Source: Candidatus Poribacteria bacterium (GTDB lineage: Bacteria; Poribacteria; WGA-4E; PCPOR2b). Taken from it: a DNA stretch of 64,000 nucleotides. The position numbers and the translations under genes are program-made. The notes beneath the pieces are model-generated. The model had not been told where the DNA came from and searched no databases. It saw only the letters and a program-made list of their open reading frames with translations. The DNA lies in NCBI GenBank assembly GCA_965215015.1, contig OZ244042.1, positions 3,712,001 to 3,776,000 of the forward strand, in the 5' to 3' direction. Of the stretch, positions 16,898 through 39,219 are shown piece after piece. Position 1 is the stretch's first letter; each line of letters starts with the position of its first letter.

Positions 16898-16933
16898 AAA
16901 GAAGAAAGCCCCACACCAAAAGGCGGGGGCTTT
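16898..16933 (-). terminator. Rho-independent terminator
   Basis: AAAGCCCC/GGGGCTTT stem followed on the minus strand by a T-rich tail, downstream of the 253-aa gene. Confidence 0.7.
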
Positions 16934-23009: not shown

Positions 23010-23354
23010 CTACTTCGCGTTTTTGTCGTTTTTGTCTCTAAGAAATTCGTAGAATTCAAGCAAGGCTTCCTTATCTTTCTCCGAAAGCTCCATGATGCCT
23101 CTAAACATAATACTAACTTTCGGATCCGCTAAAAGATCATTGTAGCCTTGCTCCTTTTTGCCGAGCAGGTAGTCCGTGGTGACTTTCAGCGCATCGGCGA
23201 GGCTCGAAAGTGTGTCAAACGCCGGTTTGCGGGTGCCAGACTCAAACTGCGAAATCGCCGCAGGGGTCAGTCTTGCCGCTTTGGCCAGTTGTGTTTGCGT
23301 CATTCCAAGCTTATCACGGCGTTTCTTAATACGTACTGAAACAGACATAATCAC
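23010..23354 (-). CDS. XRE-family HTH transcriptional regulator
   Basis: MTQTQLA...AISQFESGTRKP...LADALKVTTDYLLG, with an AGGAGG RBS. Confidence 0.95.
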   Translation of the reverse strand: MIMSVSVRIKKRRDKLGMTQTQLAKAARLTPAAISQFESGTRKPAFDTLSSLADALKVTTDYLLGKKEQGYNDLLADPKVSIMFRGIMELSEKDKEALLEFYEFLRDKNDKNAK

Positions 23355-23764: not shown

Positions 23765-23793
23765 TTGACAAGATTCTACGACTGTGATAGAAT
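23765..23793 (+). promoter_or_regulatory. Sigma70 promoter of the giant-permease operon
   Basis: TTGACA-N17-TAGAAT with extended -10 TG, and a GGAGG RBS before ATG 23862. Confidence 0.75.
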
Positions 23794-23861: not shown

Positions 23862-26800
23862 ATGATTATCAAGAGATATTATTACATCAGTTTATGGCTT
23901 TGTATCTTTGCCCTACTATCTCCGCATGTGGACGCCGCGGTTGAAGAGCAGCTGTCAGTTGGGCTTTCGGAGGTTGCGGTCAAAATCGTTGACAAAGTCG
24001 ATATCGGTCGAATGCGAAAAGACATCGCTCGACTCTCTAATCTTTCCACCCGTGTCACCGGCTACGATGAAGCCGCCTCAGGCAGCAAATACATCTTCGA
24101 TCAATTTGTCGATATTGGCTTACAAAACGTCGAGAGCCGCGAGTTTCCTGTTTCCGTGCCGATTGACCACGGTGATGGGAAGGTAGAAATTCTCTCCGAA
24201 GATAAAACGCTCCTCAAGACTTATCGAATCTGGTCCATTTGGCCCAACCTGGTTCGCACCTCCTTCCTCCCCAACGGTATCTCCCATCTGGTAGTCGCAG
24301 GTGAAAACCTTGATAGGATTGCCAAATCCTACCAAGTTGACCCACAAACCATTTTAGCTGACCCGCACAACCAATACCTTCGTGACCAAGCAACCGATGG
24401 CAGCGATAACGATGATGATGGTGAAGTCGACGAACCGGGCGAGTTGGTGCTGGTCGAAGGCAACTCACTCTTTATTCCCACCGGCGGATTGACCGCCCCC
24501 ATCTTTTATGGCGGAAGTGGCGAGCTCGCCTCGTTCAACGGTAAAGATATCGGAGGCTTCTGGCACAAAGTTCAGCCTAACGATACGCTAGAAGACCTCG
24601 CCCATCAATTTCGCATCGGCGTCGGTAGTATCACCGACGACGTGCTTAACGGGCACCTCCAAAAAACGCAAGATGGTATCGACAACAACGAAGACGGACA
24701 GATTGACGAATACGGTGAGATTCCCCCACTCACTGAAATCTTACAGTGGGATACCGACGGTATTGACAACGATGGGGATGAGTTCGTAGACGAACAGCCC
24801 GGCGATGCAACTGACGGCATCGATAACAACAACAACGGACAAATTGACGAAGAAGGTGAATTTGTCGCCGCCTCTGAATCCAGCATCTTTATTCCCCAAG
24901 GCAGCGTTGCCCTTATTGACTTCAACTCTAGCACCAAATGGATTAACGCCGCAATGCTTGGTGCAAAAGCCGTGCTCTTCATCGAGCCAGAGACCACTAT
25001 CCGCGGCGAGGCTGAAAACAAATTTCTGACGGTCCCCGCCAACATCCCTCGATTCTGGATTGCTAAGAAAGATGCCGACGAACTCTTGGCTATGCTCGGT
25101 GAAGGAGAAACGGGTGCACAATCACCAATAACAGAAACTGACTCGCAACCGTCCGGGTTGATTGAGCCAGGAGGGGTGGAGCGCAGCCCTAGGTATCCGA
25201 AACTTTATGCGCGTCTTACCAGTACCATCACTTGGGAACAGCGGATGGGGCAGAACATTCGGGGCTTCCTTGAGGGGGGCGACCCAACCCTGAAAGACGA
25301 ATTGGTCGTTATCACCGGCTATTACGACTCAATGTCTGTCGTTCCCGCAATGGCACCGGGAGCCGACCCCACCGGCGGCATCGCCACGTTGTTGGAACTT
25401 GCCCGCATCTTTAGCGACGAGGAATTTCGGCCGGGCCGCTCTCTCCTTTTTGTAGCGACAGATGCCCACTTCCAAGGGCTCGGCGGGATGCGAGCATTTA
25501 TGGAAGGGATTGGTCAAGATATCGTCGGCCGCGAAGCGGATTCTCCCGGCACACCGACGATGCGCGGGCTGCGGCGCGGTTTAAGCACCGACCTCTTTGA
25601 GTTTGAGGAATTAGGACGCAAGCTATTGCTGTCAATCGATCGGAATGTGCTGGTAGACCTGCCCCCTAACTTCTTCCATGATGTCCACGAACTCAAAGCA
25701 GATGTTGATTCCCTAGCAACAACCCTCGCTGATTTGGCGACGACAAAGGGCAAGATTAACAGCTTGCGTAACGCCCAACGTGAGGCAAAAGAGAAGGAAA
25801 AGAAGAAACTTGAAACAACCAAGAAGCGAGAGAAACAAGGATTTACCGAAGAGGAAAAATCTCGGCTAGAAGTTAATCTAGCAAAGTTCAAGAAGGATGC
25901 ACTGCAGACCACCCAATTCATTCGTTCAATGTTTCATCGTACCCTTAAATTGCGTACCCAAGCATTGGACGAGTGCCGTCAAACCCAGCGCGAACTGATT
26001 GAACAGGTTGCCTTACCCATGGCTCGGTTGGATGTCTGGGCAATTGAAAAACTCATCGCAGATCTGGCAGCGAAACGAATTAAAGGGAAATATGCCCAAA
26101 CGCCAGACAGCAGCTATCTCGTGCCGAAGGAAGGGGAGGACGGACAGTATTACTTGCCCGCACCAAACGACCTATCATCGTATTTAGAGGCAGATGTTCA
26201 GCGGCTGTCCGAAGCATTGCAGGACTGGGAATTTGAAGATCCACGGAAATTCACCCTCCAGTATGCCCAAGAGAAGTTGTTAGACCGTCATCTCGACTTT
26301 AAGGGGTTGGAACGAATTAAGTCCGCCCGGAGGGTTGTGAACCGCGCTGAAAAATCTCTAGAAGCCTACATAATCGAGGAACGACAAATCCTTGAACGGA
26401 CGCTCGCAAACATTCCCGCTGGCAGCGACGCGGCGGATAGCATCAAAAACGCTATCACCCAGTTAGGCGCTAAACCCGACCATATCCCCAGCGGCTTTGT
26501 TGATGAGCTAAAACTCTTCCTCAACGCAGCGACCCTCAAGCAGTTCGAGATTGTCCAGAACCAACTCCATCAGAAGTTAGAGATGATGGACCCAACAACG
26601 GGAACAACAACCTCACGAGAGTTGGATCAAATTCTAATTGACGACCTGACCAGAGATAAACAGAGCATTCTCGAAACCGCGATGCGTAACGCTCGCCTCG
26701 AACGCTATCGGATTGAATCCCTCCTCGCACGCCATGGGTCGTTGAACCGATCCTACCTCGCCGAAGAAGAACTCGTCCTCCGGCACTATCTCCCTGAAGA

Positions 26801-29800
26801 TGCAGCAGACCGGGCGATGGACGTCCGAGAGCAAATCTTCGGTCAGCTGGAAGAACAACAGCTACTCGAGATAGTGAAGAAGCGAGCCAAGAACGATATC
26901 GTCGAACTCCAGAATCTTCTCAACGTTCTTGACCGCCTCGATCGGGACCCGGACGAGGAGACCAAAATCCTCCTGCGTGATAACCTGCTGACGATGCGAA
27001 ACGCTCGATTCCGTAATCTACAGAAACGGGTGGAAAAAATCGCACGCATCAGCGAAGCCGAATACACACGGAAGATACGCTCCATTGAACAAGCGATTGC
27101 ACTCCAAGACATCTTTAACCGTTACTACACCTCTCTCTTTATTTCTATTGACCTCTCCAGCCAGAACGACCAATTTGGCGTATTCAACAAAGGTTGGTTC
27201 TACGACCAACAACCCGAATTCGTCCTCCGCCGCGAGTTTGCTTCTATCGGAAATAAACTTGCCGAATACGCGCAGGGCGCCGATTTCGGCGAGCGTATCC
27301 AGAAACTCTGGACCTTCACCGACGACCAGATCCGCCAAGCGGTGATGAACACCCAGTGGACAGTCGCAGCCGGCATCGATCCGAAAAAAGCCATCGAAGG
27401 CAAGAGCCTAGAAAGCTTAGTCACCGAACATTATGCAACGTTGGTCGGGCTATCCGGGGTCTCTCGATTGATGAAGATGCAATTTGAACAGATGAAAAGC
27501 CAAGGCGAACCGTCCGAGGACATGCTCAAGGATATGGACTATATCCGCAAGGAGGTCGAGCGATTCATCCGAAACGATATCCGAGAGGCACGGAAGAACC
27601 GCAAGAATAAAGTGCGCCTGCTCAATCGACTAGATGCCATGCTTGCCCTGCGCTATGAAGACCCGTCCGAATTCACCCAAGAAGAAGTCGATGATATCAA
27701 GGCACTCATTAATATTGCCGGTTTCGGCGGTGAAACCAACTTCGTCAACGCAATCTCCGCCAGTGGCGGTAAGATCTGGAAGACTTACATCCCCGGCAAG
27801 ATTGCCTTCGATAGCGAAGTTGCCACCCTCACCGGGTTTACCGGAATCGCTTTTGCCACCATAGACGATGCGCGCGTGCTGACCGATACCCCGCTCGATA
27901 CTATTGACCGGATGGACTTGACCAAAGATGGTGCCTTGCATAAACAAGCGAAGACCCTTGCCGCTGTTCTCATCCAAGCAATGCGCGACCCGAAGATGCC
28001 CACCGCAGCGCGGGTCGGGAATTTCTACTGCAACCTATTTGGTGATGTCGTCGAGTATGACGCCCGCGAGAGCGCACTCCCAAACAAGCCAGTCGAGTAC
28101 CCCATCCTCGCCTTGCGGAGTCGGCACAAAACTATGATGGGAGTACGCGGCGACCTCATCGCAATGGGAGACAATAAAGGGAACTTTGAGGTCGCAGGGC
28201 TTGCGATGGAGGGACGCGCAACCATCCGTCTCAAAGGAACGCAGGAGGTGGAAGCATACATCCTCCACCCCGATTCGGGCGATATTGTCTACGCACCGGA
28301 TCTCGGCAATTTCGGCGCAAAACTTTTACCGAACCTGATACCGATCAACACCCACCGTCGTGGATGCCGGATTGTGGTTTTCCCCTGCGTGTCCACCACC
28401 ATTTACGATCTTGTAGATCAGCGATACCTACGGACCCTTCGTGAGCTGGAAGTTTTTGATGCCGCAAGCGATAGCCCACCCGAAAAGTATGGCGTGTCGA
28501 AGCCGTGGCAGCAGGAAGGCATCTCGGCGACCGAACCCATTGCGCTCGTCTATTCTGAACCCAACAGCCGTATCAAGGTGGGGATGGCGTATGGACAGAT
28601 TGGCAAACGGTTGCTGCTGATTAAAGCCAGCAAAAGTGGAACGAAGAACCCCACACTCTATACCGGAGAAGGGTTTGTCGTCCGTGAAAACGGGAGCATT
28701 CGGGTAACCCCATATGTTGTCGTCCGCGATATGTGGTGGCTCGATGAAAACCGAGCCAGTTTGTATAAACGGTTCGGCATCAGCAGCGACCGACTCGATC
28801 AACTTCACCAATTTGCCAATGAACATCTGAATCAGGCGGAGGCCGCCCTCATTCAAAGAGACTATCAGCAAGCACTCAAGCTCGCCCGCGCCGCCTGGGG
28901 ATACGAATCTCGCGCATATCCCGATGTCAAGAAAACAGGCAATGACGTCGTCAACGGCGTGATGTTTTATCTCGCGCTCCTGATCCCGTTCGCTTACTTC
29001 ATGGAGCGACTGCTGTTCGCCTTCCCAACCGTCCAAAAGCAGATTATCGGAACAGCCGCGATTTTCCTCGTCGTATTTTTCTTCTTGGCGCAGGTGCACC
29101 CCGCATTTCAGATTACCACAACGCCGGTTATCATCCTGATTGCATTCATCGTCCTCGCATTGACAGCAATCGTAATCAGTATCATCGTCCGGAAGTTTGA
29201 AGAACAGATAGAAAAAATTAAGCAGGAAGGCTCGCAGGTGTACAAAGCGGATGTGGGACGACTGTCTGCCTCCGCTGCCGCTTTTAGTCTCGGTATTTCC
29301 AATATGCGTAAGCGGAAGGGGCGCACCATCCTCACCTGTAGCACGCTGGTCATTCTCACATTTACGGTCATCTCCTTTACATCGGTGCGGACCTTTATGC
29401 ACCCCAACAGCACCAACCTACCGTCTGTAACCCCCCGATACACCGGGATGCTCATCCGAGATCAGTATTGGAACCCTCTTGAGGAACCCGTTGTCAACTC
29501 CCTTACAAACGATTTGCGGAAAACACAAATCCCTGAAAAGGATTTACGGCTACTGTTGAAGAAGCGGCGGGGACAGCAGGGTACGCCTACCAATCAGATT
29601 GACGAGGACGTTGATGCAATGTTAGACCAACTACGGCAGCAGGGGGCATTAATTGAACTCGGTGAAGAATCTGTATTGCGAGTGCACAACATCGTCGCAC
29701 CACGAGCGTGGTATCAGTCCGCAGGTACAGGGGATCAGTCATTTGTACAGCTAGAACGCACCGCCAACCCACGAGATCCCGTACCGCCTGTCAATACCGC

Positions 29801-31337
29801 CACCGGTCAGCCAAAGACCTACTCCGCTACCATGCTGGTCGGGATGAGTCAAGATGAACCCGGTGTCACCGGGATTGACCGCTACCTCCAATACGGGCGA
29901 TGGTATCACCCCGACGATGAAGCGGAGTGGCCCACACAATGGCCCTACGCTTGCGTGTTGCCCAAAGGCATGGCGGATCTGCTCGGTATCACCGAAGCCG
30001 ATATGGGCAAAGCGACCGTCTCCGTATACGGCGCGGATTTCACCGTAACCGGTGTCCTCGGTATCGGCTTCAAAGACCTACAGGATAACGATGGCGAAGA
30101 ACTAACACCCGTTGATTACCAACTGATGCAGCAGCAGGAAGCGCGCGGCGGCGGCGCACAGGGACAGAACCAAGCCATGGAGGGAGAGCTGGAAAAATAT
30201 ATCCATCTCCCGCCTGACGCTGTAGCTATCCTGCCGTACGATGTGGTGATGAATCAGGGCGGAACCTTACGCTCGGTCGCTGTCAACATGGAAGCACAAC
30301 CCGGCGATCCGAAAATTTTCAGTGCAGCAGATAAACTTGATCTGATTATGGCACCCCTGATGAACCGAATCGCACTCGACTTCTTTGTTGGAAAAGATCG
30401 GGATACCTATCTATACAGTTCAATCGGAATGACCTCTTTCTCCGGGATGGGCAACCTGTTCATACCAATCTTAATTGCGTCGCTGATTGTTCTGAACACA
30501 ATGCTCGGTGCGGTCTATGAACGTGTCCGTGAAATCAGCATCTACAGCTCCGTCGGACTTGCCCCTGTGCATATCGCTTTTCTGTTCCTCGCAGAGGCGT
30601 GTGTGTACGCAATTGTCGGTGCAGTGCTCGGCTACCTGCTTGGTCAGGCTGTCGCAACCATCCTCGTCAATTTCGGATTACTCGCCGGACTGACCCTTAA
30701 CTACTCGTCAATGTCAACAGTGGTAGCAACCATTATTGTGATGATTGTTGTGGTTGGGAGCACGCTGTATCCTGCAATTAAAGCCAGTCGCATGGCGGTG
30801 CCCGACATTGAACGGAAATGGCAGCTGCCGGAACCTGAAGGCGATGAGTGGCACTTCGATCTTCCCTTTACAGTGTTGGCAGAAGAATCGCTCGGCTTGA
30901 ATATCTTTATGCGCGATTACTTTGAGGCGCACGCCGACGAATCCGCAAGCGACTTTTATACGGATCAGGTCGCCTTCGGTCGAACATCTGTGGAAGTTGA
31001 AGGAACGGAAGACGAAGCCTACAACATCAGCATGATGGTCTGGCTCGCACCCTACGACCTCGGGGTCAGCCAATCCATTCGGCTTGTCACCTCACCGGTC
31101 GGCGGTGAAGAGGAAGAGCTGTATAAAATCCACCTCGATGTCCATCGTGAGAGCGGGGAGATTGCTTCATGGAAGCGTGTCAACCGCCGTTTCTTGAACC
31201 TGGTCCGAAAACAGTTGCTAATCTGGCGGACCTTCAGTGCCGATGTCCGTGGTGAATTCCATGAGCGTGGACGGCAAGAGAGCGAGACGGAAACGACCCC
31301 GGGCGTAGGCAATCTGGTCGCCCAACCGGCAGATTAA
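23862..31337 (+). CDS. Giant (2491 aa) M28-peptidase-like/LysM/FtsX-type ABC permease fusion
   Basis: Signal peptide; M28-like RVTGY and ITGYYDS...PGADPTGGIATLLELAR; two LysM-like segments; four DGxDN..DG..DE repeats; long helical inserts; TM blocks; FtsX motifs ISNMRKRKGRTILT and VYERVREISIYSSVGL. Confidence 0.85.
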   Translation: MIIKRYYYISLWLCIFALLSPHVDAAVEEQLSVGLSEVAVKIVDKVDIGRMRKDIARLSNLSTRVTGYDEAASGSKYIFDQFVDIGLQNVESREFPVSVPIDHGDGKVEILSEDKTLLKTYRIWSIWPNLVRTSFLPNGISHLVVAGENLDRIAKSYQVDPQTILADPHNQYLRDQATDGSDNDDDGEVDEPGELVLVEGNSLFIPTGGLTAPIFYGGSGELASFNGKDIGGFWHKVQPNDTLEDLAHQFRIGVGSITDDVLNGHLQKTQDGIDNNEDGQIDEYGEIPPLTEILQWDTDGIDNDGDEFVDEQPGDATDGIDNNNNGQIDEEGEFVAASESSIFIPQGSVALIDFNSSTKWINAAMLGAKAVLFIEPETTIRGEAENKFLTVPANIPRFWIAKKDADELLAMLGEGETGAQSPITETDSQPSGLIEPGGVERSPRYPKLYARLTSTITWEQRMGQNIRGFLEGGDPTLKDELVVITGYYDSMSVVPAMAPGADPTGGIATLLELARIFSDEEFRPGRSLLFVATDAHFQGLGGMRAFMEGIGQDIVGREADSPGTPTMRGLRRGLSTDLFEFEELGRKLLLSIDRNVLVDLPPNFFHDVHELKADVDSLATTLADLATTKGKINSLRNAQREAKEKEKKKLETTKKREKQGFTEEEKSRLEVNLAKFKKDALQTTQFIRSMFHRTLKLRTQALDECRQTQRELIEQVALPMARLDVWAIEKLIADLAAKRIKGKYAQTPDSSYLVPKEGEDGQYYLPAPNDLSSYLEADVQRLSEALQDWEFEDPRKFTLQYAQEKLLDRHLDFKGLERIKSARRVVNRAEKSLEAYIIEERQILERTLANIPAGSDAADSIKNAITQLGAKPDHIPSGFVDELKLFLNAATLKQFEIVQNQLHQKLEMMDPTTGTTTSRELDQILIDDLTRDKQSILETAMRNARLERYRIESLLARHGSLNRSYLAEEELVLRHYLPEDAADRAMDVREQIFGQLEEQQLLEIVKKRAKNDIVELQNLLNVLDRLDRDPDEETKILLRDNLLTMRNARFRNLQKRVEKIARISEAEYTRKIRSIEQAIALQDIFNRYYTSLFISIDLSSQNDQFGVFNKGWFYDQQPEFVLRREFASIGNKLAEYAQGADFGERIQKLWTFTDDQIRQAVMNTQWTVAAGIDPKKAIEGKSLESLVTEHYATLVGLSGVSRLMKMQFEQMKSQGEPSEDMLKDMDYIRKEVERFIRNDIREARKNRKNKVRLLNRLDAMLALRYEDPSEFTQEEVDDIKALINIAGFGGETNFVNAISASGGKIWKTYIPGKIAFDSEVATLTGFTGIAFATIDDARVLTDTPLDTIDRMDLTKDGALHKQAKTLAAVLIQAMRDPKMPTAARVGNFYCNLFGDVVEYDARESALPNKPVEYPILALRSRHKTMMGVRGDLIAMGDNKGNFEVAGLAMEGRATIRLKGTQEVEAYILHPDSGDIVYAPDLGNFGAKLLPNLIPINTHRRGCRIVVFPCVSTTIYDLVDQRYLRTLRELEVFDAASDSPPEKYGVSKPWQQEGISATEPIALVYSEPNSRIKVGMAYGQIGKRLLLIKASKSGTKNPTLYTGEGFVVRENGSIRVTPYVVVRDMWWLDENRASLYKRFGISSDRLDQLHQFANEHLNQAEAALIQRDYQQALKLARAAWGYESRAYPDVKKTGNDVVNGVMFYLALLIPFAYFMERLLFAFPTVQKQIIGTAAIFLVVFFFLAQVHPAFQITTTPVIILIAFIVLALTAIVISIIVRKFEEQIEKIKQEGSQVYKADVGRLSASAAAFSLGISNMRKRKGRTILTCSTLVILTFTVISFTSVRTFMHPNSTNLPSVTPRYTGMLIRDQYWNPLEEPVVNSLTNDLRKTQIPEKDLRLLLKKRRGQQGTPTNQIDEDVDAMLDQLRQQGALIELGEESVLRVHNIVAPRAWYQSAGTGDQSFVQLERTANPRDPVPPVNTATGQPKTYSATMLVGMSQDEPGVTGIDRYLQYGRWYHPDDEAEWPTQWPYACVLPKGMADLLGITEADMGKATVSVYGADFTVTGVLGIGFKDLQDNDGEELTPVDYQLMQQQEARGGGAQGQNQAMEGELEKYIHLPPDAVAILPYDVVMNQGGTLRSVAVNMEAQPGDPKIFSAADKLDLIMAPLMNRIALDFFVGKDRDTYLYSSIGMTSFSGMGNLFIPILIASLIVLNTMLGAVYERVREISIYSSVGLAPVHIAFLFLAEACVYAIVGAVLGYLLGQAVATILVNFGLLAGLTLNYSSMSTVVATIIVMIVVVGSTLYPAIKASRMAVPDIERKWQLPEPEGDEWHFDLPFTVLAEESLGLNIFMRDYFEAHADESASDFYTDQVAFGRTSVEVEGTEDEAYNISMMVWLAPYDLGVSQSIRLVTSPVGGEEEELYKIHLDVHRESGEIASWKRVNRRFLNLVRKQLLIWRTFSADVRGEFHERGRQESETETTPGVGNLVAQPAD

Positions 31338-31554
31338 AGCGTGATGCGTTAGAAGTACATTGCGCATTGCGCTCCTCCGGAGCGAATCGGCTGGTGTTAT
31401 GCCATTGATCTGTGGGTGGGGTAAGGACACCCGAACCACGAGGCCCATAAAAAAATGCAAAACCCTCTTTTTACATAAGCCAACTCAAAAAGCATTCCTT
31501 TCCTCTAATCACGCATTACCTTTAACGTATCACGCAAAGGAAACAACAAAATCA

Positions 31555-31722
31555 ATGGAAAAATTAGCGTATATCCTAATCTTTATCGGTTCAATCTTTT
31601 GGGTATTTTCGATCTTCTTTATGGGAGCCCGATGGCAGCCACAGCTGCTCGCTGCCACAATCCTAATTGTTGGAATTATTATCGCCCACGTTTGGGAAGA
31701 GCTTTTCCGAGAAAAAAAATGA
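31555..31722 (+). CDS. Small two-TM membrane protein (55 aa)
   Basis: MEKLAYILIFIGSIFWVFS...EELFREKK, with AAGGA upstream, inside the operon. Confidence 0.6.
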   Translation: MEKLAYILIFIGSIFWVFSIFFMGARWQPQLLAATILIVGIIIAHVWEELFREKK

Positions 31723-31850
31723 CCGATGGACACAGTGAAACAACGCACGATTGAGCTCATTTATTCATAGGTGCAAAAGTTCATTAACGAACCAATCAAC
31801 CAATGAGCTAACTTACGTTTCACGTTTCGTGTCCTGAAAGGAGCATAAAT

Positions 31851-33848
31851 TTGGCAAGAGAAAGGGTGTCACAAGCAGAAGAGTGGCAAGCTTGGGCACA
31901 ACGTTATGATGTTGAGGGCGGTTTAAGAACCTTTGAATCCGGGTTAACCCTGAAAGTCTTTCTAGGGGCGGTCTTCATTGGACTATTGATGATGCCGGGG
32001 TCAATCTATTTGACCTTAGTCGCAGGTCAATCGGGTGCAGGGGCTGCACCTTGGGTAGCGGTTATTCTGTTTACAGAGTTGGCACGCAGGTCCTTCACGA
32101 CAGCAAGGAGACAAGAACTTTACATTTTGCTAGGGTTGACCGGCGCGGCAGTCGGATCCGGAATCCATTATCGCGCCTATCCATTTGTCTGGTACGCCTA
32201 CTTTATCAACACGCCGCAGGCACAGTCGTATGAAATCGCAGACAAAATCCCCTATTGGGTCGCACCAGCAAAGGACGCTGTCGCAATTGCAGAGCGGTCA
32301 CTCCTACATATCGATTGGTTTTGGCCCCTTGCAATCTTCCTAATCATGAAGTTGCTGGCAGAAGTCCGCTATATTAGCGCAAGTTATTTCCTGTTCCGTC
32401 TGACAGCAGATTTAGAGCGACTCCCCTATCCGCTAGCACCGATTCACGCACAAGGGGCAACCGCATTAGCCGAAACCACCGGACAGGGCGAAACATGGCG
32501 TTGGCGCGTCTTTTCCATTGGATCTATGGCAGGGCTGTTCTGGGGATTTTTCTATATCGGTATACCCTCGCTCACGGGAGTGATGATGTCAACACCGATA
32601 CAGATTCTGAAAATTCCATTTATCGACTTCACTCCAAGCATCGAAAGCTTTGCGCCATCGGGAATGTTTGCCCTGTGGACAGATTTCGGACTGATATTAC
32701 AGGGGTTCGTACTGCCGTTTCCAATCATCATAAGCGAATTTGTCTCAGCGATGTTCACCCAATTTATCTTGAATCCGCAAATCCTTTACCGTTACGAAAT
32801 TTTACATCAGTGGCGCCCCGGTCTGGATATGCGTGGAACCAAGCTATTTAACGACCTTGATTTTTGGTTGAGCTTCGACATGGGCAAATCCTTTAGCTTT
32901 GCCGCCGTTGGCTTGGCAGCATCCATTCCAATCATGTTGAGTCTTAGACAGAAAAAACAGCAAGAGGCCGGTGCCCGAGGCTCGTTACAAACGCCACCGG
33001 GACGTGGCGATTTCCCAATCTGGTTGATGGGCGGTTTGTGGGTACTCAGTATGGTGGTATATGTATGGATTGTGCATCGGATGGTGCCAAACTTCCCCGT
33101 CGCTTTCCTGCTTGGCTTCGCCTTCCTGTATACTCCCTTACATTCGTATATCAACGCGCGAACATTTGGGGTGTTAGGGAGACCCCTCTTCGTGCTCCCT
33201 TACATCCATCAGGCAACGTTTATTTTAAGCCGCTACGAAGAGATCGACATCTGGTTTGTCCACCTACCAGATGAAGATTATGGCGCAGGCACACAGCACT
33301 GGCGCGTGCTTGAACTAACCGGCACCACCTTCACCAGCGATGTCCTTGGGCGCGCCTTGATGGTGCCGCTACTAATTGTTGCGACAATCATCGTCTGGCA
33401 TTTTATCTGGCAAATCGCGCCAATCCCGTCTTCACAATATCCGTTTGCACAGACATGGTGGCCCCTCTACGCAACCGATGAATGCCTCTGGAAAACCTCA
33501 CTCCGCGATGGAAACAGCCAGATGCTGCAAGCCATTCGTGGCGATTACGTGTCAGCCGGTTTTACCTCCTCGCTAGCAATCTACGGTTTTCTTTGGGTGG
33601 CGAAGCTACCCAGTATGTGGTTCTACGGTATTGTCGGCGGAATCGGTCAAGACCCAGGGATGATGGTCCCACGGGTTATCGGCGCACTCATCGGTCGATT
33701 CTACATGATCAAACAGTTCGGTCTGAAACGATGGTTTATGTATAACCCCGTCTTAGCGGCAGGCTTCACCTGTGGTGTCGGACTTGTCGGCATGGCTACG
33801 GTTGCGATTGCCCTGGTCTCCAAAGCAGTAATCGTCAAACCGTTCTAA
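31851..33848 (+). CDS. OPT-like (oligopeptide transporter superfamily) membrane protein, copy 1
   Basis: Numerous TM helices, ERLPYPLAP and LMMPGSIYL; AAGGAG RBS and TTG start. Confidence 0.75.
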   Translation: MARERVSQAEEWQAWAQRYDVEGGLRTFESGLTLKVFLGAVFIGLLMMPGSIYLTLVAGQSGAGAAPWVAVILFTELARRSFTTARRQELYILLGLTGAAVGSGIHYRAYPFVWYAYFINTPQAQSYEIADKIPYWVAPAKDAVAIAERSLLHIDWFWPLAIFLIMKLLAEVRYISASYFLFRLTADLERLPYPLAPIHAQGATALAETTGQGETWRWRVFSIGSMAGLFWGFFYIGIPSLTGVMMSTPIQILKIPFIDFTPSIESFAPSGMFALWTDFGLILQGFVLPFPIIISEFVSAMFTQFILNPQILYRYEILHQWRPGLDMRGTKLFNDLDFWLSFDMGKSFSFAAVGLAASIPIMLSLRQKKQQEAGARGSLQTPPGRGDFPIWLMGGLWVLSMVVYVWIVHRMVPNFPVAFLLGFAFLYTPLHSYINARTFGVLGRPLFVLPYIHQATFILSRYEEIDIWFVHLPDEDYGAGTQHWRVLELTGTTFTSDVLGRALMVPLLIVATIIVWHFIWQIAPIPSSQYPFAQTWWPLYATDECLWKTSLRDGNSQMLQAIRGDYVSAGFTSSLAIYGFLWVAKLPSMWFYGIVGGIGQDPGMMVPRVIGALIGRFYMIKQFGLKRWFMYNPVLAAGFTCGVGLVGMATVAIALVSKAVIVKPF

Positions 33849-34005
33849 AGTAGTCGGCATACGCATACGCCGTATGCCGTAACCAATATCCATCAGACAG
33901 CACGGCGAACGCACTTACTATTAATAAGTTCATGGGCTCATTTGCAATCCCTGAACAAATCCGAATAAAGTTGAACCTGTACAACCGATTTAGCCGCTGT
34001 CATTC

Positions 34006-34063
34006 GTAGGGAACAATTCTTCTCGGACTCCCGGTCATCGCCCGGAGACTCATTGTTCCCTAC
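34006..34063. repeat. GTAG-type REP hairpin
   Basis: Perfect arms GTAGGGAACAAT/ATTGTTCCCTAC, with related copies at about 45144 and 46046. Confidence 0.75.
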
Positions 34064-34125
34064 ACACAAACGCGTACCCCTGATTGGATAAGGAGATCAA
34101 GATTCATTCTTGACACCCAATTGTG

Positions 34126-34502
34126 ATGATTGTTTGGAGAATCTTTTTTTCTTTTGAAGGTAGAATCAACCGGGGCACCTATTGGGGGCGACCGCGGCGC
34201 GTCTAGTAATGTCCTGTATTTGCCTTCTTGTTTTTATCTTAACTATTGAGCAGCCAGTACACTTTAGCGTTACCGGCTTGTTTACTTTATCGTTATTCAT
34301 ACTCACATTACCGTTGTTCATACTCACATTCTACTGCGGCTATCCAATAGCCGTAAAACGTTGGCATGACAGAAACAAATCAGGTTGGTGGATACTGATT
34401 GAATGGATTCCACTTATAGGGACTTTCTGGACAATTATTGAATGCGGTTTTCTGAAAGGCACCGAAGGACCGAATCGGTTCGGACCAAACCCCTTAATAT
34501 AA
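34126..34502 (+). pseudogene. DUF805 (YhaH-like) membrane protein with a frameshift in a G5 tract
   Basis: ATG 34126 reads MIVWRIFFSFEGRINRGTYW and then stops. The rest (AVKRWHDRNKSGWW...GPNRFGPNP) continues in another frame from the G-run at 34184-34188. Confidence 0.8.
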
Positions 34503-34548
34503 CTGATCCGCTATGAACCAATGAACTAATGAACCACTAAGAGTTGTT

Positions 34549-36543
34549 ATGGCAAGAGAACGAGTTACACAAGCAGAAGAGTGGCAAGTCTGGGCGCAAC
34601 GCTACGACATTGATGGGGGCATCCGAACCTTCGAGTCGGGCTTAACGCTGAAGGTCTTCCTAGGAGCACTTTTCGTCGGCTTGCTGATGATGCCGGGGTC
34701 AATCTACCTGACCTTAGTCTCCGGTCAGTCCGGCGCAGGGGCAGCTCCGTGGGTCGCAGTCATCCTATTCACCGAGCTAGCCCGTCGATCTTTCACAACT
34801 GCTAGGCGACAAGAGCTTTATATGTTGCTTGGACTCACCGGCGCAGCGGTCGGGTCCGGGGGGCAGTACCGCGGTTTTATCTGGTACGCTTACTTTATCA
34901 ATACGCCACAAGCTGCGTCGTATGAAATTGCGGATAAAATCCCTTTCTGGATTGTGCCATCGAAAGATGCACTAGCGATTGCAGAGCGTTCGCTCCTGCA
35001 CATGGACTGGTTTTGGCCCATCGCATTCTTTCTGATATTCAAGTTGTTGGGAGAGATCCGCTATATTAGTGCAGGCTATTTTCTGTTTCGTCTGACAGCT
35101 GATATGGAGCGGCTTCCCTACCCAATGGCGCCCATCGAAGCGCAGGGCGCGACCGCATTAGCAGAGACCACCGGACGGGTCGAAACGTGGCGGTGGCGTG
35201 TCTTTTCGGTCGGATCTATGGCTGGGTTGATCTGGGGATTTATTTACATCGGTATCCCTTCACTCACTGGAGTGATGATGTCAACACCGATACAGCTCCT
35301 GAAGATTCCATTCATCGATTTTACAAACGTCATCGAAGAAATAGCGCCAACGGGGGTGTTCGCACTATCGACCGACTTTGGGGCGGTACTCACCGGTTTT
35401 GTACTGCCATTTCCCATTATCATGACGGAACTTGTCGGAGCCTTCTTTACCCAGTTTATTCTGAATCCACGAATCCTTTATCCGGCAGAAATCCTGCATC
35501 AATGGCGTCCCGGATTGGATGTCCGTGGTACAGGCTTATACAATGGGCTCGATTTCTGGATTAGCTTCGGGATGGGTAAATCTTTCAGCTTCGCCTTCGT
35601 TGGTATGGCAGCCTCGATTCCGATGCTGCTCAAGTTTAGACAGGCTCGACAAGAACAATCAGGGTTATCCAGATCACTACAAACACCGCCGGGACGTGGC
35701 GATTTTCCACTCTGGTTGATGGCAATCCTGTGGCTCTTTGGGATGGGAACTTTCATCTATATCGTTCACGTTTATATGGCACCGAACTTTCCGTTGGCTT
35801 TCCTGATCGGTTTTGCCTTTTTGTACACCCCGGTCAATTCATACATTACTGCGCGAACATACGGGATTCTCGGCCGCGACCTTTTCGAGATCCCTTACCT
35901 CCACGAAACGACATTTATCTTGAGTCGCTACGAGGAAATTGATATCTGGTTCGTCCCACTGCCGGACGAAGACTACGGACGCGGCACACAAAGCTGGCGG
36001 GTCCTTGAATTGACAGGGACCACCTTCACCAGTAGTATCGCTGCACGATTACTGCTTATGCCAATCCTGATTATCTCTGGCATTGTGGTCTGGCATTTTA
36101 TCTGGAAAGTCGCGCCAATTCCGTCGGCGCAATATCCGTTTGCACAGACATGGTGGCCCCTCTATGCGACCAACGAATGCCTCTGGAAAACCTCCCTCCG
36201 GGACGGAAATAGCCAGATGTTGCAAGCCATTCGTGGCAATTATGTCGTGGCCGGCTTCGCCTCCTCAATGGCAATCTACGGTTTACTCTGGGTGGCGAAG
36301 ATGCCAAGCATGTGGTTCTACGGGATCGTGGGGGGAATCGGTGCCGACCCCGGCATGATGCTTCCAAAAGTTATGGGGGCAATTATCGGCCGTTTTTATA
36401 TGATTAAGAAATTCGGTCTGAAACGATGGTTCATGTTTAATCCCGTTTTGGCAGCAGGCTTCATCTGCGGCGTTGGACTGGTTGGAATGGGAACCGTTGC
36501 GGTTGCGCTAGTCTCCAAAGCGGTAATCGTCAAACCGTTCTAA
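34549..36543 (+). CDS. OPT-like membrane protein, copy 2 (tandem paralog)
   Basis: Collinear and highly similar to 31851-33848, with the same C-terminal ending LVSKAVIVKPF. Confidence 0.75.
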   Translation: MARERVTQAEEWQVWAQRYDIDGGIRTFESGLTLKVFLGALFVGLLMMPGSIYLTLVSGQSGAGAAPWVAVILFTELARRSFTTARRQELYMLLGLTGAAVGSGGQYRGFIWYAYFINTPQAASYEIADKIPFWIVPSKDALAIAERSLLHMDWFWPIAFFLIFKLLGEIRYISAGYFLFRLTADMERLPYPMAPIEAQGATALAETTGRVETWRWRVFSVGSMAGLIWGFIYIGIPSLTGVMMSTPIQLLKIPFIDFTNVIEEIAPTGVFALSTDFGAVLTGFVLPFPIIMTELVGAFFTQFILNPRILYPAEILHQWRPGLDVRGTGLYNGLDFWISFGMGKSFSFAFVGMAASIPMLLKFRQARQEQSGLSRSLQTPPGRGDFPLWLMAILWLFGMGTFIYIVHVYMAPNFPLAFLIGFAFLYTPVNSYITARTYGILGRDLFEIPYLHETTFILSRYEEIDIWFVPLPDEDYGRGTQSWRVLELTGTTFTSSIAARLLLMPILIISGIVVWHFIWKVAPIPSAQYPFAQTWWPLYATNECLWKTSLRDGNSQMLQAIRGNYVVAGFASSMAIYGLLWVAKMPSMWFYGIVGGIGADPGMMLPKVMGAIIGRFYMIKKFGLKRWFMFNPVLAAGFICGVGLVGMGTVAVALVSKAVIVKPF

Positions 36544-36719
36544 AGTAGTCGGCATACACCATACGCTGTATGCCGTAACCAATATCCATCAGACCGCACG
36601 ACGAGCGCACTTACTACAATGAGTTCAATAGTTCACCCGTTCATTTACACTCCCTGAACCAATGCAGATGAACTAAATAAGGTGTTTTGTGATGTCCGAA
36701 CCAAGTAAATTCACCGCAC

Positions 36720-36953
36720 TAGGGCGTGTTGACATTTGCTTAATTGAACCGATCGCCATTCCGAGCGTTTTCAATGCGTTGCCAATTTTCCAAAATCGAA
36801 AATACCTACAACATTGCGCCATAGAATACTAGACACGATAGGGGGACAATCCTGGCTCAATCGGCCCAGGACATTGCGCAAGAGTCCGGGTATTCTGTCG
36901 AGATGTGAATCTCGACCTACTAATTGGCGATAGCAAAATGTCAACACGCCCTA
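36720..36953. mobile_element. MITE with perfect 18-bp terminal inverted repeats
   Basis: TAGGGCGTGTTGACATTT ... AAATGTCAACACGCCCTA with TA at both ends and no ORF. Internal blocks recur at about 1369-1525, 14586-14675 and 42716-42765. Confidence 0.85.
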
Positions 36954-36972
36954 ATGAACTAATGAACCAACT

Positions 36973-37902
36973 ATGAAATGGACAACACTAGGGTGGAGCG
37001 GTATTACCCTCGAACTTCCTGAAGATTGGGAATTAAGCGGATTATCCGGCGACGATAAAAGCGGGTATTTGCGCCTAGAGGACGCCGATATACCGCGCCT
37101 TGAGTTAAAATGGTCCGAGTCAAAGCAGAAGAAGCCTGACCTCCAGCGCGTCCTCGACGACTATTTCAAGCTCGTTCGTAAAAATTATAAACGCAAAAAT
37201 ACAAACCTGCACATCCAACGGAATGTCAACCTAATCAAGGAGGCAGCGTTTTTCGAGAACCGAGAGGTTGCTTTCTTCAACTGGAAAGGGGAATTTCGGG
37301 CGAGCGGCGTCATCTTTCACTGCCACATCTGCAAACGAATCACGATTGTGCAGGTCATGGGGCATCTCAAGGAGAATATTCGGGACACAACCCATCGTAT
37401 TTTGAGCTCCGTTCAAGATCACCCCGTAGGACACGCAACGTTTTGGAATGTATACCAACTCAATGCGGAAGTGCCGAGACGGTATCGCCTCGACAAACAT
37501 AAACTGTTGTCCGGCTACCTGCTCTTTTCATTCGTAGACGGAAGTCGAAAGGTTAGCATTGAACGGTATGGAATCGCAGATGTTACCCTGAAGGAGCAGG
37601 ACCTTGAGGAGTGGTTTCGAGCGAGATACGCCAAAGCCATCCGCGGATACGGCTTCTCAATTGAGTCTAACAACAGTGATGCAGATGAACAACTGACGCT
37701 AATCGGGGAGGAAACGCGCATTATAGACCGTGTACCTTTTGCACCTGCTCTGATTATCGACAAAATAATGCGTCGTAAAACTTTCGCCATTTGCCTCTGG
37801 CACTGTCATCACTCGAATCGGATCTACGTTGTTCAAGCGATTGCCAAGCAAGATGCAGCCAAAACAGCGGAGGAGATAGCGGCGAGTATCCAGTGCCATT
37901 AA
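36973..37902 (+). CDS. Hypothetical cytoplasmic protein (309 aa)
   Basis: Long ORF inside the operon with no family recognised. HCHIC and HCHHS motifs. Confidence 0.75.
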   Translation: MKWTTLGWSGITLELPEDWELSGLSGDDKSGYLRLEDADIPRLELKWSESKQKKPDLQRVLDDYFKLVRKNYKRKNTNLHIQRNVNLIKEAAFFENREVAFFNWKGEFRASGVIFHCHICKRITIVQVMGHLKENIRDTTHRILSSVQDHPVGHATFWNVYQLNAEVPRRYRLDKHKLLSGYLLFSFVDGSRKVSIERYGIADVTLKEQDLEEWFRARYAKAIRGYGFSIESNNSDADEQLTLIGEETRIIDRVPFAPALIIDKIMRRKTFAICLWHCHHSNRIYVVQAIAKQDAAKTAEEIAASIQCH

Positions 37903-37973
37903 GCTCAGTTCACTAGTTCGTTTATTGGTTCATTTACATCCCCTGAACCAATGCGAATGAACCAAAGAAGCCC

Positions 37974-38393
37974 ATGATTAGTACAATCCTTTATAAACTC
38001 AAGCTCAAAAAACGTCCAGAATCCCAACTGGAGCGAGCAGATATTTTACAATCATTGCCGCTGCGCAACCAGTTAATCGAATGGGAAGTCGATCACAACG
38101 GGGAAGTGTCATTGGTTATCCCCCAAAAGGAGACCCTCTGGCTACGACTGGTTGCAAAGCTGTTTATGCTACCCCCCAAGCGTGTGGTTGTCTTAGACGA
38201 TGTCGGAGCCTTTGTGTGGCAACTGTGCGATGGGCATAATTCCATCGCTCAGATTGTCAAACAACTTTGTGGGAAGTATCGCATGACGAGAAAAGAGGCG
38301 GAGACTTCGCTATTCACGTTTATGCGGCAGTTAGGCAAGCGGGGAATGGTAGGATTTGCGGTTCCCCAAAAATCGAAGAAAGGAAAGCAATAA
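37974..38393 (+). CDS. PqqD-family (RiPP recognition element-like) protein
   Basis: LDDVGAFVWQLCDGHNSIAQIV...FMRQLGKRGMV matches the PqqD winged-helix pattern. Confidence 0.85.
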   Translation: MISTILYKLKLKKRPESQLERADILQSLPLRNQLIEWEVDHNGEVSLVIPQKETLWLRLVAKLFMLPPKRVVVLDDVGAFVWQLCDGHNSIAQIVKQLCGKYRMTRKEAETSLFTFMRQLGKRGMVGFAVPQKSKKGKQ

Positions 38394-38394
38394 A

Positions 38395-39219
38395 ATGGCA
38401 GAACTAGAAGGATTCTCTCCGGAAACAGCAGTGCATACCACTGTGCCGACGGAAACGCCTGCACGATTTGCGAGAGATTTACCCAAGGAAAACACAGTGC
38501 GAGTCAGAAACCTGATCAAGAAATACGAGATGGGCACCACTGTCGTTGAGGCACTGCGAGGCACCAATTTTGAGATTCGCCGTGGAGAGTACATCTCGAT
38601 TATGGGACCATCAGGCTCCGGTAAGTCAACGCTTTTCAACATGATTGGGGGCTTGGACAAGCCAACAGAGGGCAGAGTCTATATCGATGAAGTGGATATT
38701 GCACAACTGGATGCCTACGAATTGGCGTGGCTTCGCTGTCGCAAAATCGGTTACATTTTCCAGTCGTTCAACCTAATCCCTGTGATGACCGCCCTCGAAA
38801 ATGTCTCTCTTCCCATGATTTTCGCTGGGATGACCGCTGATGATAGCCGCATAAAAGCGATTGAATTACTAACTACTGTCGGATTAGGAGAACGGGTACA
38901 GCATAAGCCGCTTGAGCTCTCTGGCGGTCAGCAACAGCGTGTCGCCGTTGCGCGGTCGCTCGCAAACGATCCCGCAATTGTGCTCGCAGATGAACCGACC
39001 GGAAACCTAGACACACGGACCGGGCTTGAGATTATCGACCTCCTGAAAAGTCTGAACGAGGATAACGGGGTCACCATCATCACAGCCACCCACGACACAA
39101 AGATGCTTGATGTGTCGGATCGAATCTTCTACATGGCCGACGGCAAAATCGAAAAAATGGAGACCCGCGAAGAAATCGATCTGCAGGTGGGTAGACTCGA
39201 CGGTGAAGAAGTTGGGTAA
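38395..39219 (+). CDS. ABC transporter ATP-binding protein (LolD/MacB-like)
   Basis: GPSGSGKST, LSGGQQQRVAVAR, LADEPTGNLD and ATHD. Start set at MAELEG. Confidence 0.95.
   Translation: MAELEGFSPETAVHTTVPTETPARFARDLPKENTVRVRNLIKKYEMGTTVVEALRGTNFEIRRGEYISIMGPSGSGKSTLFNMIGGLDKPTEGRVYIDEVDIAQLDAYELAWLRCRKIGYIFQSFNLIPVMTALENVSLPMIFAGMTADDSRIKAIELLTTVGLGERVQHKPLELSGGQQQRVAVARSLANDPAIVLADEPTGNLDTRTGLEIIDLLKSLNEDNGVTIITATHDTKMLDVSDRIFYMADGKIEKMETREEIDLQVGRLDGEEVG

Follow-up and report, generated by a model that had tools for sequence, protein, structure and literature searches.

A gene cluster conserved in Poribacteria and other phyla joins a giant FtsX-type permease to predicted OPT-fold permeases, a PsbP-like/PqqD pair and an ABC ATPase

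The gene cluster

The DNA considered here, called the window below, is a stretch of 64,000 nucleotides (positions 3,712,001 to 3,776,000 of contig OZ244042.1) from Candidatus Poribacteria bacterium, a sponge-associated bacterium whose genome is a single contig of 5.94 Mb. Between positions 23862 and 39219 of the window lie seven genes for a giant FtsX-type permease, a small membrane protein, two permeases with a predicted OPT fold, a 309-residue protein, a PqqD-domain protein and an ATP-binding cassette (ABC) ATPase. An earlier reading, made from the sequence alone (the sequence-only reading), had placed these genes in one co-oriented, promoter-led run and had seen in them an uncharacterised transport machine for peptides or the envelope. 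The genes lie as that reading described them; judged from the open reading frames (ORFs) and their translations, all seven are real and all are on the + strand. Taken together, the results described below support well the conclusion that these genes specify the greater part of a conserved inner-membrane machine of several subunits, built on a type VII ABC motor and an OPT-fold permease and including a PsbP-like/PqqD pair.

The first gene (23862..31337, +) encodes the giant MacB/FtsX-type permease of 2491 amino acids (aa), identified by its Pfam matches, its hydropathy and an alignment with orthologs. Next is the gene for a 55-aa membrane protein of two helices (31555..31722, +), which lies inside a longer ORF with a TTG start (31360-31722). 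Two genes for OPT-fold permeases follow, copy a with 665 aa (31851..33848, +) and copy b with 664 aa (34549..36543, +), and a gene for a 106-aa small membrane protein of the DUF805 family (34182..34502, +; Pfam E 7.5e-20) is located between these paralogs. The run continues with the gene for a 309-aa cytoplasmic protein (36973..37902, +), which is modelled as two domains of the PsbP/Mog1 fold (residues 1-150 and 155-309), and the gene for a 139-aa protein (37974..38393, +) with a PqqD/RRE domain (RRE, the recognition element of peptides that are synthesized ribosomally and modified after translation, or RiPPs). It ends with the gene for an ABC ATPase of the MacB/LolD type (38395..39219, +), whose ATG at 38395 is directly 3' of the PqqD stop codon and whose longest ORF begins at a TTG at 38356. 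Gaps of 334 and 430 bases within the run leave room for internal promoters.

About 70 bases 5' of the permease ATG, at 23765..23793 (+), there is a sigma-70-like site in which TTGACA and TAGAAT are separated by a 17-base spacer, with a TG ahead of the -10 (an extended -10). This site, which is defined by its match to the sigma-70 consensus only, agrees with that consensus at 11 of 12 positions. In the region as a whole, 11 promoter-like sites were found and 16.6 were expected from shuffled sequences, with no excess. A search for sequencing runs that contain the stretch found four DNA runs, all from one study, and none of RNA.

Conservation of the cluster across phyla

A survey of loci, using one genome per species, yielded 63 loci of the Poribacteria type and 16 others, 79 in all. 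In 59 of the 63, the C-terminal part of the permease, the OPT-like protein, the 309-aa protein, the PqqD protein and the ATPase are encoded collinearly on one strand, and the other four loci end at contig ends; this arrangement is far beyond chance. The 16 other loci come from Armatimonadota, WS1, Desantisbacteria, Planctomycetota/Brocadiia, Zipacnadia and Hebobacterum. A permease ortholog of 1529-1688 aa is encoded directly 5' of the OPT-like gene in 15 of these, and all five core genes are present within the locus in four. The genes therefore co-occur and remain adjacent in other genomes and in other phyla, and the idea that they form one unit survives. Two of the smaller genes have a narrower distribution. 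The 55-aa membrane protein is specific to Poribacteria: tblastn located it in 58 of the 63 loci of the Poribacteria type but not in any of the 16 from other phyla. The DUF805 gene, which is present in only 6 of the 63, is a variable passenger that probably lies outside the system.

In the other phyla, the genes around the cluster are housekeeping or unrelated genes; the Armatimonadota locus, for example, lies beside mreB, mreC and the genes for RNase G and Rho. The earlier observation that neither a RiPP-modifying enzyme nor a precursor peptide is visible at this locus has been confirmed and can be extended: neither here nor in four loci of other phyla was a conserved precursor found within about 10 kb, or a maturase of any kind, be it a radical-SAM enzyme, a cyclodehydratase or one of the lasso or lanthipeptide type. 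Likewise, the cluster was said to match no characterised pathway, and no characterised transporter or RiPP pathway was matched in Pfam, NCBIfam or PADLOC. Full-text searches of the literature retrieved no description of the cluster or of the DUF6785/DUF6784 family, which is considered below.

The giant FtsX-type permease

The permease gene is present in a single copy in the genome. That its product is an FtsX-type permease joined to a peptidase-like ectodomain, as first proposed, is borne out by matches to Pfam FtsX (PF02687; residues 2200-2311, E 3e-12, 47.1 bits against a cut-off of 25.5) and to Peptidase_M28 (E 5.3e-8, covering only positions 1-77 of the 193 in the profile). The LysM assignment holds for the protein overall (E 1.3e-5), but no single stretch passes on its own. 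Two further matches are below their cut-offs: a PA domain (17.3 bits) and MacB_PCD (21.5 bits against 27), the latter of which is above its cut-off in the Desantisbacteria ortholog (32.7 bits).

A hydropathy scan, together with an alignment with six orthologs of other phyla, gives the following layout. A signal or anchor segment (residues 9-27) is followed by an ectodomain of about 1670 aa that contains PA-like and remodelled M28-like domains. Three extra transmembrane (TM) helices (residues 1695-1781) precede the FtsX module, in which TM1 (1821-1842) is separated from TM2-4 (2192-2309) by a periplasmic domain. The protein ends in a cytoplasmic C-terminal domain of 180 residues (2312-2491), with 39 invariant columns in the seven-sequence alignment. 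About 717 residues are Poribacteria-specific inserts, made up of LysM-like and Asp-rich repeat blocks (137-345) and a long helical region (approximately 551-1286). The first of these inserts (residues 137-345, encoded at 24270-24896) comprises two blocks, each with a LysM-like half-motif and acidic Asp/Asn/Gly-rich repeats, and is absent from the six other-phylum orthologs; by their composition, the acidic repeats look like calcium-binding loops. The inserts in the ectodomain vary by lineage, being LysM-like here and F5/8 type C in Desantisbacteria, and both are of glycan-binding types.

In an alignment of the M28-like segment with the Vibrio aminopeptidase (1amp), Tyr stands at the position of His97, His at that of Glu151 and Phe at that of Glu152; Asp117 is retained. 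In the Vibrio enzyme, we take the aligned residues to be co-catalytic zinc ligands and the catalytic Glu. The His-Phe replacement and the loss of His97 are found in all seven orthologs compared, which come from different phyla. The domain is therefore not a canonical di-zinc peptidase, and its site has been remodelled and conserved rather than having decayed. Consequently, the "processing" that had been considered as one activity of the system is unlikely to be carried out by this domain, since the canonical metal-binding and catalytic residues of the M28 domain have been lost.

The FtsX half of the permease also matches two profiles of the PADLOC collection. PDLC01991 aligns with residues 2172-2459 over profile positions 414-683 of 810 (E 1.8e-48), and with a permease ortholog over positions 69-683, leaving positions 684-810 unmatched. 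The two profiles are named "CARF_m8--CARF_LolE_TM" and "CARF_m8--CARF_Beta-galactosidase_LolE_TM", and their matches have E values of 1.8e-48 and 5.7e-25, respectively; evidently, relatives of the permease have been catalogued in a census of CARF sensor proteins. The C-terminal domain by itself gave no match to the CARF_m8 profiles. From its sequence it looks like an alpha+beta domain that is not Rossmann-like; a search against the sequences of solved structures gave only rows at chance level (E 0.5-0.9), and one against the ESM Atlas gave nothing above 0.88. A defence system was also considered for this locus and rejected, the PADLOC results consisting only of generic ATPase matches and the CARF_m8 profiles.

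The OPT-fold permeases

The two OPT-fold permeases of the run are 80% identical to each other, and neither matches a Pfam or NCBIfam model even at E 10. Within the wider family, PF03169 matches 1 of the 21 aligned members (E 5.8e-4), and one ortholog reaches 24.3 bits against a cut-off of 25.8. Likewise, a profile of the OPT-like family found nothing at E<=1 among the sequences of solved structures. An AlphaFold model of copy a, built from a 21-sequence alignment, has a mean predicted local distance difference test score (pLDDT) of 74.3, and when it was compared with the Protein Data Bank (PDB) by Foldseek, the only matches at E<=0.001 were to barley Yellow Stripe 1 (7wst_A; E 2.2e-10, with template-modelling scores of 0.60 by query and 0.66 by target). 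Thus, in the earlier description of the two proteins as "OPT-like" paralogs, the label holds for the predicted fold but not for membership in the PF03169 family.

The OPT-like protein is 71-98% identical across the order, where it is present in 39 of 41 genomes, and 40-44% identical across phyla. Some of its relatives carry the NCBI name "peptide transporter". Two copies are found in 18 of the 19 other genomes of the genus, and in 52 of 53 loci copy b is more similar than copy a to the single-copy ortholog of other Poribacteria. This pattern points to a duplication that is specific to the genus, with copy a as the duplicate.

The ATPase and a second, small FtsX protein

The ATPase matches ABC_tran (E 6.3e-34), and the Walker A, signature and Walker B motifs, as we presume them to be, can be read in its translation. 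Its top NCBIfam matches are LolD, YbbA, DevA and MacB, in agreement with the original LolD/MacB-type call. Nonetheless, it is below every equivalog cut-off, including that of its best match, LolD (230.7 bits against 307.75). It shares 69-73% identity with the ATPases that the cluster encodes in other phyla, compared with 62% for a paralog in its own genome; the ATPase is duplicated in Poribacteria.

In eight loci of other phyla, the ATPase gene adjoins a gene for a small FtsX protein of 223-280 aa. Its ortholog here (52% identity) is located 560 kb from the cluster, beside the second, paralogous ATPase. This pair (3148786-3150206 of the genome contig) adjoins a gene similar to succinylglutamate desuccinylase/aspartoacylase, and a full-length MacB-like permease is encoded 3 kb upstream of it. 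It was considered whether the small FtsX and its ATPase could be FtsEX or LolCDE, and both were rejected on scores far below cut-off; the best NCBIfam match of the small FtsX is lolCE (58.5 against 362.45). The LolC model gives the giant permease 27.9 against 473, the FtsX equivalog models give 19.6-32.4 bits against cut-offs of 225-255, and FtsE gives 205.1 against 264.85.

Type VII ABC systems work through periplasmic partners, and motors of the MacB type move ectodomains rather than carrying substrates through the FtsX helices. The giant permease and the ATPase of the MacB/LolD type form the parts of a type VII ABC motor. By analogy with LolC/LolE, this motor is likely to be an asymmetric pair, with one giant and one small FtsX subunit.

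The 309-aa protein and the PqqD protein

The genes for the 309-aa protein and the PqqD protein are each present in a single copy in the genome, and the PqqD gene comes after the 309-aa gene in all loci, across phyla, in which both were found. Neither a signal peptide nor a TM helix is present in the 309-aa protein, which matches no Pfam model. It is modelled with a pLDDT of 89.8 as tandem domains of the PsbP/Mog1 type. The N-terminal half (1-150) superposes on cyanobacterial PsbP (2xb3_A; Z 14.8, root-mean-square deviation 2.8, 138 residues aligned), and the C-terminal half (beginning at 153 or 155 and ending at 309) on Apa (5zxa_A; Z 11.3) and on Mog1 (1jhs_A; Z 11.2); Foldseek also finds PsbP (E 1.8e-5). 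The family is large, with 1713 clusters at 50% identity for E<=0.001 and 274 for E<=1e-30, and ten clusters that were sampled are all named only "hypothetical protein". In the ESM Atlas, the protein matched only unnamed clusters, from Poribacteria, Gemmatimonadota and Armatimonadota, together with weak leads under 0.85.

The PqqD assignment made in the sequence-only reading is secure (PF05402, E 4.3e-14, 53 bits against a cut-off of 23.4, residues 64-126). An alignment of 20 orthologs shows a conserved domain core and a conserved basic N-terminal extension. The NCBIfam equivalogs are below cut-off, both for PqqD itself (39.1 against 46) and for the lasso-peptide model (29.9 against 80).

For the PqqD protein, which the sequence-only reading had proposed as a cytoplasmic peptide adaptor, modelling supports binding to the 309-aa protein. 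The predicted complex has a median interaction prediction score from aligned errors (ipSAE) of 0.69, and the best of three controls has 0.00; the mark used is reached by 58 of 80 solved complexes and by 2 of 110 mismatched pairs, a calibration that is only rough for this complex, which was run with custom alignments. The model runs agree in at least 96% of contacts, with partner pLDDT values of at least 75. The modelled interface involves residues 5-15 and 18 of the basic N-terminal extension of the PqqD protein, as well as residues 102-112.

The DUF6785 family

Although the sequence-only reading had listed real genes, its list omitted the DUF805 gene, the distant small FtsX with its paralogous ATPase and the DUF6785 family. 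A member of this last family, a polytopic membrane protein of 659 aa (DUF6785/DUF6784; Pfam E 1.1e-155 and 1e-26), is encoded 7 kb upstream of the cluster (14940..16919, -). The genome contains 31 DUF6785 copies by Pfam and 27 by tblastn; nine other genomes that carry the cluster have 46, 14, 44, 27, 9, 13, 5, 8 and 34, and 14 control genomes have none. A comparison of the window DUF6785 protein with the OPT-like protein gives a BLASTP E value of 0.013 only, and hhalign aligns the two families over 541 collinear columns with E 5e-4. These results are suggestive of a distant relationship between DUF6785 and the OPT-fold permeases of the cluster.

The surroundings of the DUF6785 genes were scanned in 20 regions that hold 23 of the 27 tblastn copies, covering the nearest 89 of 176 neighbouring ORFs. 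Among these 89 are 3 sulfatases, 2 FGE-sulfatase proteins, 6 GFO/IDH/MocA oxidoreductases, 4 xylose-isomerase-like TIM barrels, 6 PhyH dioxygenases, 2 acetyl-xylan esterases, an arabinofuranosidase, 2 LamG lectins and 3 Kelch/NanM-like proteins. Only three other proteins of an uptake type are included (MFS, Bmp and a TonB-dependent receptor). The neighbourhoods are dominated by the catabolism of sugars and sulfated glycans. In 6 of the 20 regions, a PhyH-family dioxygenase gene is only a few genes away from a DUF6785 paralog, and one paralog has directly 5' of it a gene for a 1709-aa protein like bacterial alpha-2-macroglobulin (4396058-4401187 of the genome).

The phyletic patterns of the two permease families are nearly the same. 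Among 101 genomes of Armatimonadota, the OPT-like gene and DUF6785 are each present in 81, and the two sets are identical; in this sample, the OPT-like gene is near-universal and mostly single-copy, where copy numbers are lower bounds given that at most 13 candidates were scored per genome. Three Armatimonadota genomes that lack both families also lack the small FtsX. Among 151 genomes of Planctomycetota, each family is present in 23, both in 22 and neither in 127. Overall, presence of the two families agrees in 250 of the 252 genomes of these phyla. In 13 of the 22 Planctomycetota genomes with both, the coordinates place a DUF6785 gene on the same contig as the OPT-like gene and no more than about 10 kb from it, and in the Desantisbacteria and Brocadiia loci a DUF6785 gene is directly 5' of the permease gene. 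Furthermore, one Planctomycetota genome that has only DUF6785 contains eight DUF6785 genes and four homologs of the giant permease, three of which lie beside DUF6785 genes; one of these modules includes a small FtsX homolog. Because giant-permease homologs accompany DUF6785 in a genome without the OPT-like protein of the cluster, the invariant pairing is that of a giant FtsX permease with an OPT-fold permease of either type.

Comparison with known systems

Like the cluster together with its distant small FtsX, LolCDE has two dissimilar FtsX-type permeases, each with a periplasmic domain between TM1 and TM2, and a LolD-like ATPase. However, the Lol scores are far below cut-off, and one of the permeases here has an ectodomain of about 1670 aa, three extra TM helices and a conserved cytoplasmic tail. 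In addition, the obligate neighbours of the cluster, an OPT-fold permease, a PqqD protein and a PsbP-like protein, have no equivalents in Lol. MacAB-TolC, FtsEX-EnvC, HrtBA and YbbAP share with the cluster the FtsX fold and a cognate cytoplasmic ATPase, and also have a MacB-type periplasmic core domain, which is putative in the permease here (weak, but above cut-off in an ortholog); each acts through an extracytoplasmic partner or domain. Here, in contrast, the partner is a polytopic protein with the fold of a secondary transporter rather than a periplasmic adaptor, an amidase activator or a lipase. No ABC mechanotransmission system paired with an OPT-fold carrier was found in the literature searched.

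The predicted OPT-fold permeases have the overall fold of the OPT/Yellow-Stripe-like carriers over some 600 residues (barley YS1, 7wst and 7wsr; PF03169) and are similar to them in length, but they form a separate, deeply diverged family that is tied to an ABC motor. In the same way, the PqqD protein retains the conserved core of known PqqD/RRE proteins, such as the lasso-peptide B1 proteins, and is above the PF05402 cut-off, yet it has a basic N-terminal extension, no adjoining RiPP maturase or precursor, and a predicted partner that is PsbP-like rather than an enzyme. Both halves of the 309-aa protein can be superposed on PsbP or Mog1 with Z values of 11-15, a fold shared with DUF1795 (the Eag chaperone), and the type VI secretion immunity protein TplEi likewise has two such domains. 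Sequence identity to these proteins, however, is 7-16%, with no detectable sequence relationship, and the 309-aa protein differs from them in being cytoplasmic and in belonging to a family, without a Pfam model, that is invariably accompanied by this ABC system. Finally, there is an analogy, and only an analogy, to the group II energy-coupling factor (ECF) transporters, in which one or two sets of motor genes are accompanied by many scattered, substrate-specific membrane proteins beside pathway genes. The folds are unrelated, and a same-genus genome described below, G017, contradicts a dependence of DUF6785 on the motor.

A model for the cluster and its alternatives

These findings have led us to a tentative model, which we favour while judging it slightly less probable than improbable: the cluster would be an ATP-powered uptake system of a capture-and-feed type for an oligomeric nutrient. 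In this model, by analogy with other MacB-type systems, ATP hydrolysis would move the large ectodomain, with no substrate carried through the FtsX helices. The remodelled, non-catalytic PA/M28 head, with its lineage-specific glycan-binding modules, would capture an oligomer (a peptide, a glycopeptide or a glycan fragment) outside the membrane and pass it to the OPT-fold permease, which would be the path across the membrane. The PsbP-like/PqqD pair may dock at the cytoplasmic face as an adaptor or regulator. Capture and feeding are favoured because MacB-type motors move ectodomains, because the ectodomain has glycan-binding inserts and because relatives of the permease occur in catabolic loci; import in particular is favoured because the related DUF6785 permeases are found in loci for sugar catabolism.

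The main rival, which we regard as unlikely on balance, is a machine for export or envelope assembly. In this case, the OPT-fold permease or the membrane itself would supply a surface or periplasmic component, the MacB-type motor and long ectodomain would extract it or push it outward, as in LolCDE, MacAB-TolC or HrtBA, and the PqqD/PsbP-like pair would deliver or gate the cargo. It is the main rival because all known type VII systems act outward. Export is also consistent with the identity of the best NCBIfam matches of the ATPase and of both FtsX proteins (LolD and LolC/E), although none of the Lol, FtsX and MacB equivalog scores comes near its cut-off and the genome encodes other full-length permeases of the MacB/LolCE type. 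A housekeeping role would predict an OPT-like gene that is mostly single-copy and highly conserved, as is observed; the Armatimonadota locus adjoins mreB, mreC, RNase G and rho, and LysM-like inserts could anchor the ectodomain at the cell wall. An essential envelope role is, however, argued against by a same-genus genome that appears to lack the cluster. Both the RRE and the Eag/PsbP-like fold are known to bind peptides or segments of proteins that are about to be modified or exported, but no conserved cargo gene adjoins the cluster across phyla, and relatives of its OPT-fold partner lie in catabolic loci. A RiPP-type system for the export or processing of peptides, in which the RRE would bind the leader of a ribosomal peptide that the OPT-plus-ABC system then processes and exports, can be considered very improbable. 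The PqqD/RRE domain is bona fide (PF05402, E 4.3e-14), there are weaker matches to lasso-peptide and other RiPP chaperone models, and ABC exporters are common in RiPP clusters. Nevertheless, this reading is weakened by the lack of RiPP enzymes and precursors within about 10 kb, both here and in four loci of other phyla. In addition, all RiPP-chaperone equivalog scores are below cut-off, the M28-like domain lacks catalytic residues, and the presence of the system in nearly all Armatimonadota (81 of 101 genomes), for the most part as a single copy, is unlike the patchy distribution of RiPP clusters.

The other alternatives concern what the motor serves. It may be a shared energising hub, whose FtsX/ATPase motor would act, like an ECF module or TonB, on the adjacent OPT-like protein and on many scattered DUF6785 permeases as well, an idea that we consider improbable. 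Such a hub would fit the asymmetry in copy number (single genes for the permease, the 309-aa protein and PqqD, two for the OPT-like protein, and 27-31 for DUF6785 here and 5-46 in nine other carriers) and the phyletic patterns, which are identical or nearly so in two phyla, although co-occurrence among related genomes overstates linkage. It would also fit the three Armatimonadota genomes in which the small FtsX is missing together with both families, and the closeness of DUF6785 genes to the OPT-like gene in 13 of 22 Planctomycetota genomes and to the permease gene in Desantisbacteria and Brocadiia. The Planctomycetota genome with four giant permeases for eight DUF6785 genes, however, speaks of pairing rather than of a hub, and OPT-fold carriers need no ATPase. 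In the same-genus genome G017, moreover, 26 DUF6785 genes are kept although the giant permease and the OPT-like gene are missing; the small FtsX and the paralogous ATPase are kept as well. Least probable of all is that there is no single system, the ABC system and the OPT-like carriers being independent and adjacent through inheritance in a lineage. The 334- and 430-base gaps, the variable DUF805 passenger and the several other-phylum loci in which only the permease and OPT-like genes are adjacent would agree with this. On the other hand, 15 of 16 loci, which belong to several phyla and stand at 40-44% identity, retain that adjacency, the order from the 309-aa gene to PqqD is kept across phyla, and the predicted interface of their products passed its controls.

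Several points weigh against the capture-and-feed uptake model itself. OPT transporters are autonomous, proton-coupled carriers and therefore need no motor in principle. To our knowledge, the characterised type VII ABC systems all act outward or on the outer leaflet, so that they expel or extract rather than import, which favours export, and we know of no role for a PqqD/RRE protein in uptake. In several loci of other phyla, a search within 10 kb did not turn up the 309-aa, PqqD or ATPase gene. The link between DUF6785 and the OPT-like proteins is weak in sequence (hhalign probability 31%), and the OPT-like proteins of the window have no Pfam OPT match. In addition, the counts of genomes overstate the evidence, because related genomes are not independent and co-occurrence may partly mirror shared descent.

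A further point comes from G017, a genome of the same genus (2 contigs, 96% complete) that keeps 26 DUF6785 genes without the cluster. A search of this genome gave no OPT-like gene, no match to the C-terminal third of the giant permease and no DNA match to window positions 21001-41000 except an ATPase-like stretch and short dispersed repeats. The ATPase-like stretch, 67% identical to the cluster ATPase, lies beside the small FtsX gene, which is kept (96% identity). The upstream flank in G017 is collinear up to window position 20991, where the break falls inside a contig, and the downstream flank is about 520 kb away and inverted. Thus, either the cluster is dispensable and the DUF6785 permeases work without it, or it is missing from that assembly.

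In a bolder form of the uptake model, which is as unlikely in our view as export, the cluster would represent a hybrid class of transporter that has so far gone unrecognised. A mechanotransmission motor with giant and small FtsX subunits would be physically coupled to OPT permeases, which have the fold of secondary carriers, the oligomers captured by the remodelled peptidase head would be fed into the carrier at the expense of ATP, and the PsbP-like/RRE module would receive the substrate or gate its entry. At its boldest, this model would have the same motor family energise or gate dozens of DUF6785 permeases. Such a system would then be the main one for uptake of organic nutrients in Armatimonadota, Poribacteria, part of Planctomycetota and allied uncultured phyla, and would fill the place held elsewhere by SusCD or by binding-protein ABC importers. 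Even in the more cautious form, a type VII motor that is conserved together with a polytopic permease of the OPT fold, a PqqD/RRE protein and a PsbP-like partner would amount to a novel transporter architecture and would give the RRE a new job outside RiPP biosynthesis. Several heterotrophic phyla that are abundant and largely uncultured, with sponge symbionts among their members, may take up organic matter in this way. Three families that carry no functional annotation are concerned: the OPT-like family of the cluster, the 309-aa family and DUF6785/DUF6784. Armatimonadota include cultured members, such as Chthonomonas, Fimbriimonas and Armatimonas.

Flanking genes and elements

Upstream of the cluster and divergent from it is a gene for an XRE-type helix-turn-helix (HTH) regulator (23010..23354, -; HTH_3, E 2.9e-17), a candidate local regulator. 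A divergent HTH gene is present upstream in 32 of the 48 Poribacteria-type loci with at least 1.5 kb of upstream DNA. Here it is accompanied by a gene for an M78/IrrE-like metallopeptidase (the pair spans 22093-23354, -), a combination that we take to be typical of ImmR/ImmA-like regulator pairs; the M78 gene is kept in fewer loci than the HTH gene.

Further upstream, at 14940-20898 (-), four genes come after the DUF6785/DUF6784 permease gene; their products look secreted and show only weak matches of a lectin type (CBM9-like, 3-keto-disaccharide-hydrolase/LamG-like and GH59 C-terminal lectin-like). This group looks like one of the many small, substrate-specific loci that surround DUF6785 permeases in the genome.

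The block that has no counterpart at the syntenic site of G017 extends from about 21000 to 45000 (some 24 kb) and contains the HTH/M78 pair, the whole cluster, and ferredoxin-reductase-like, ankyrin-repeat, Fe-alcohol dehydrogenase and F5/8-type-C genes. The ankyrin-repeat protein, of 193 aa, is encoded just 3' of the cluster (40837-41418); it is eukaryote-like, and sponge symbionts have frequently been reported to carry proteins of this kind. Short intergenic sequences of 35-120 bases in and beside the cluster (36886-36923, 39253-39294 and 40463-40581) match at least 25 places in G017 with 70-100% identity, and are probably copies of a dispersed repeat of the genus, similar to repetitive extragenic palindromes (REP) or miniature inverted-repeat transposable elements (MITE).

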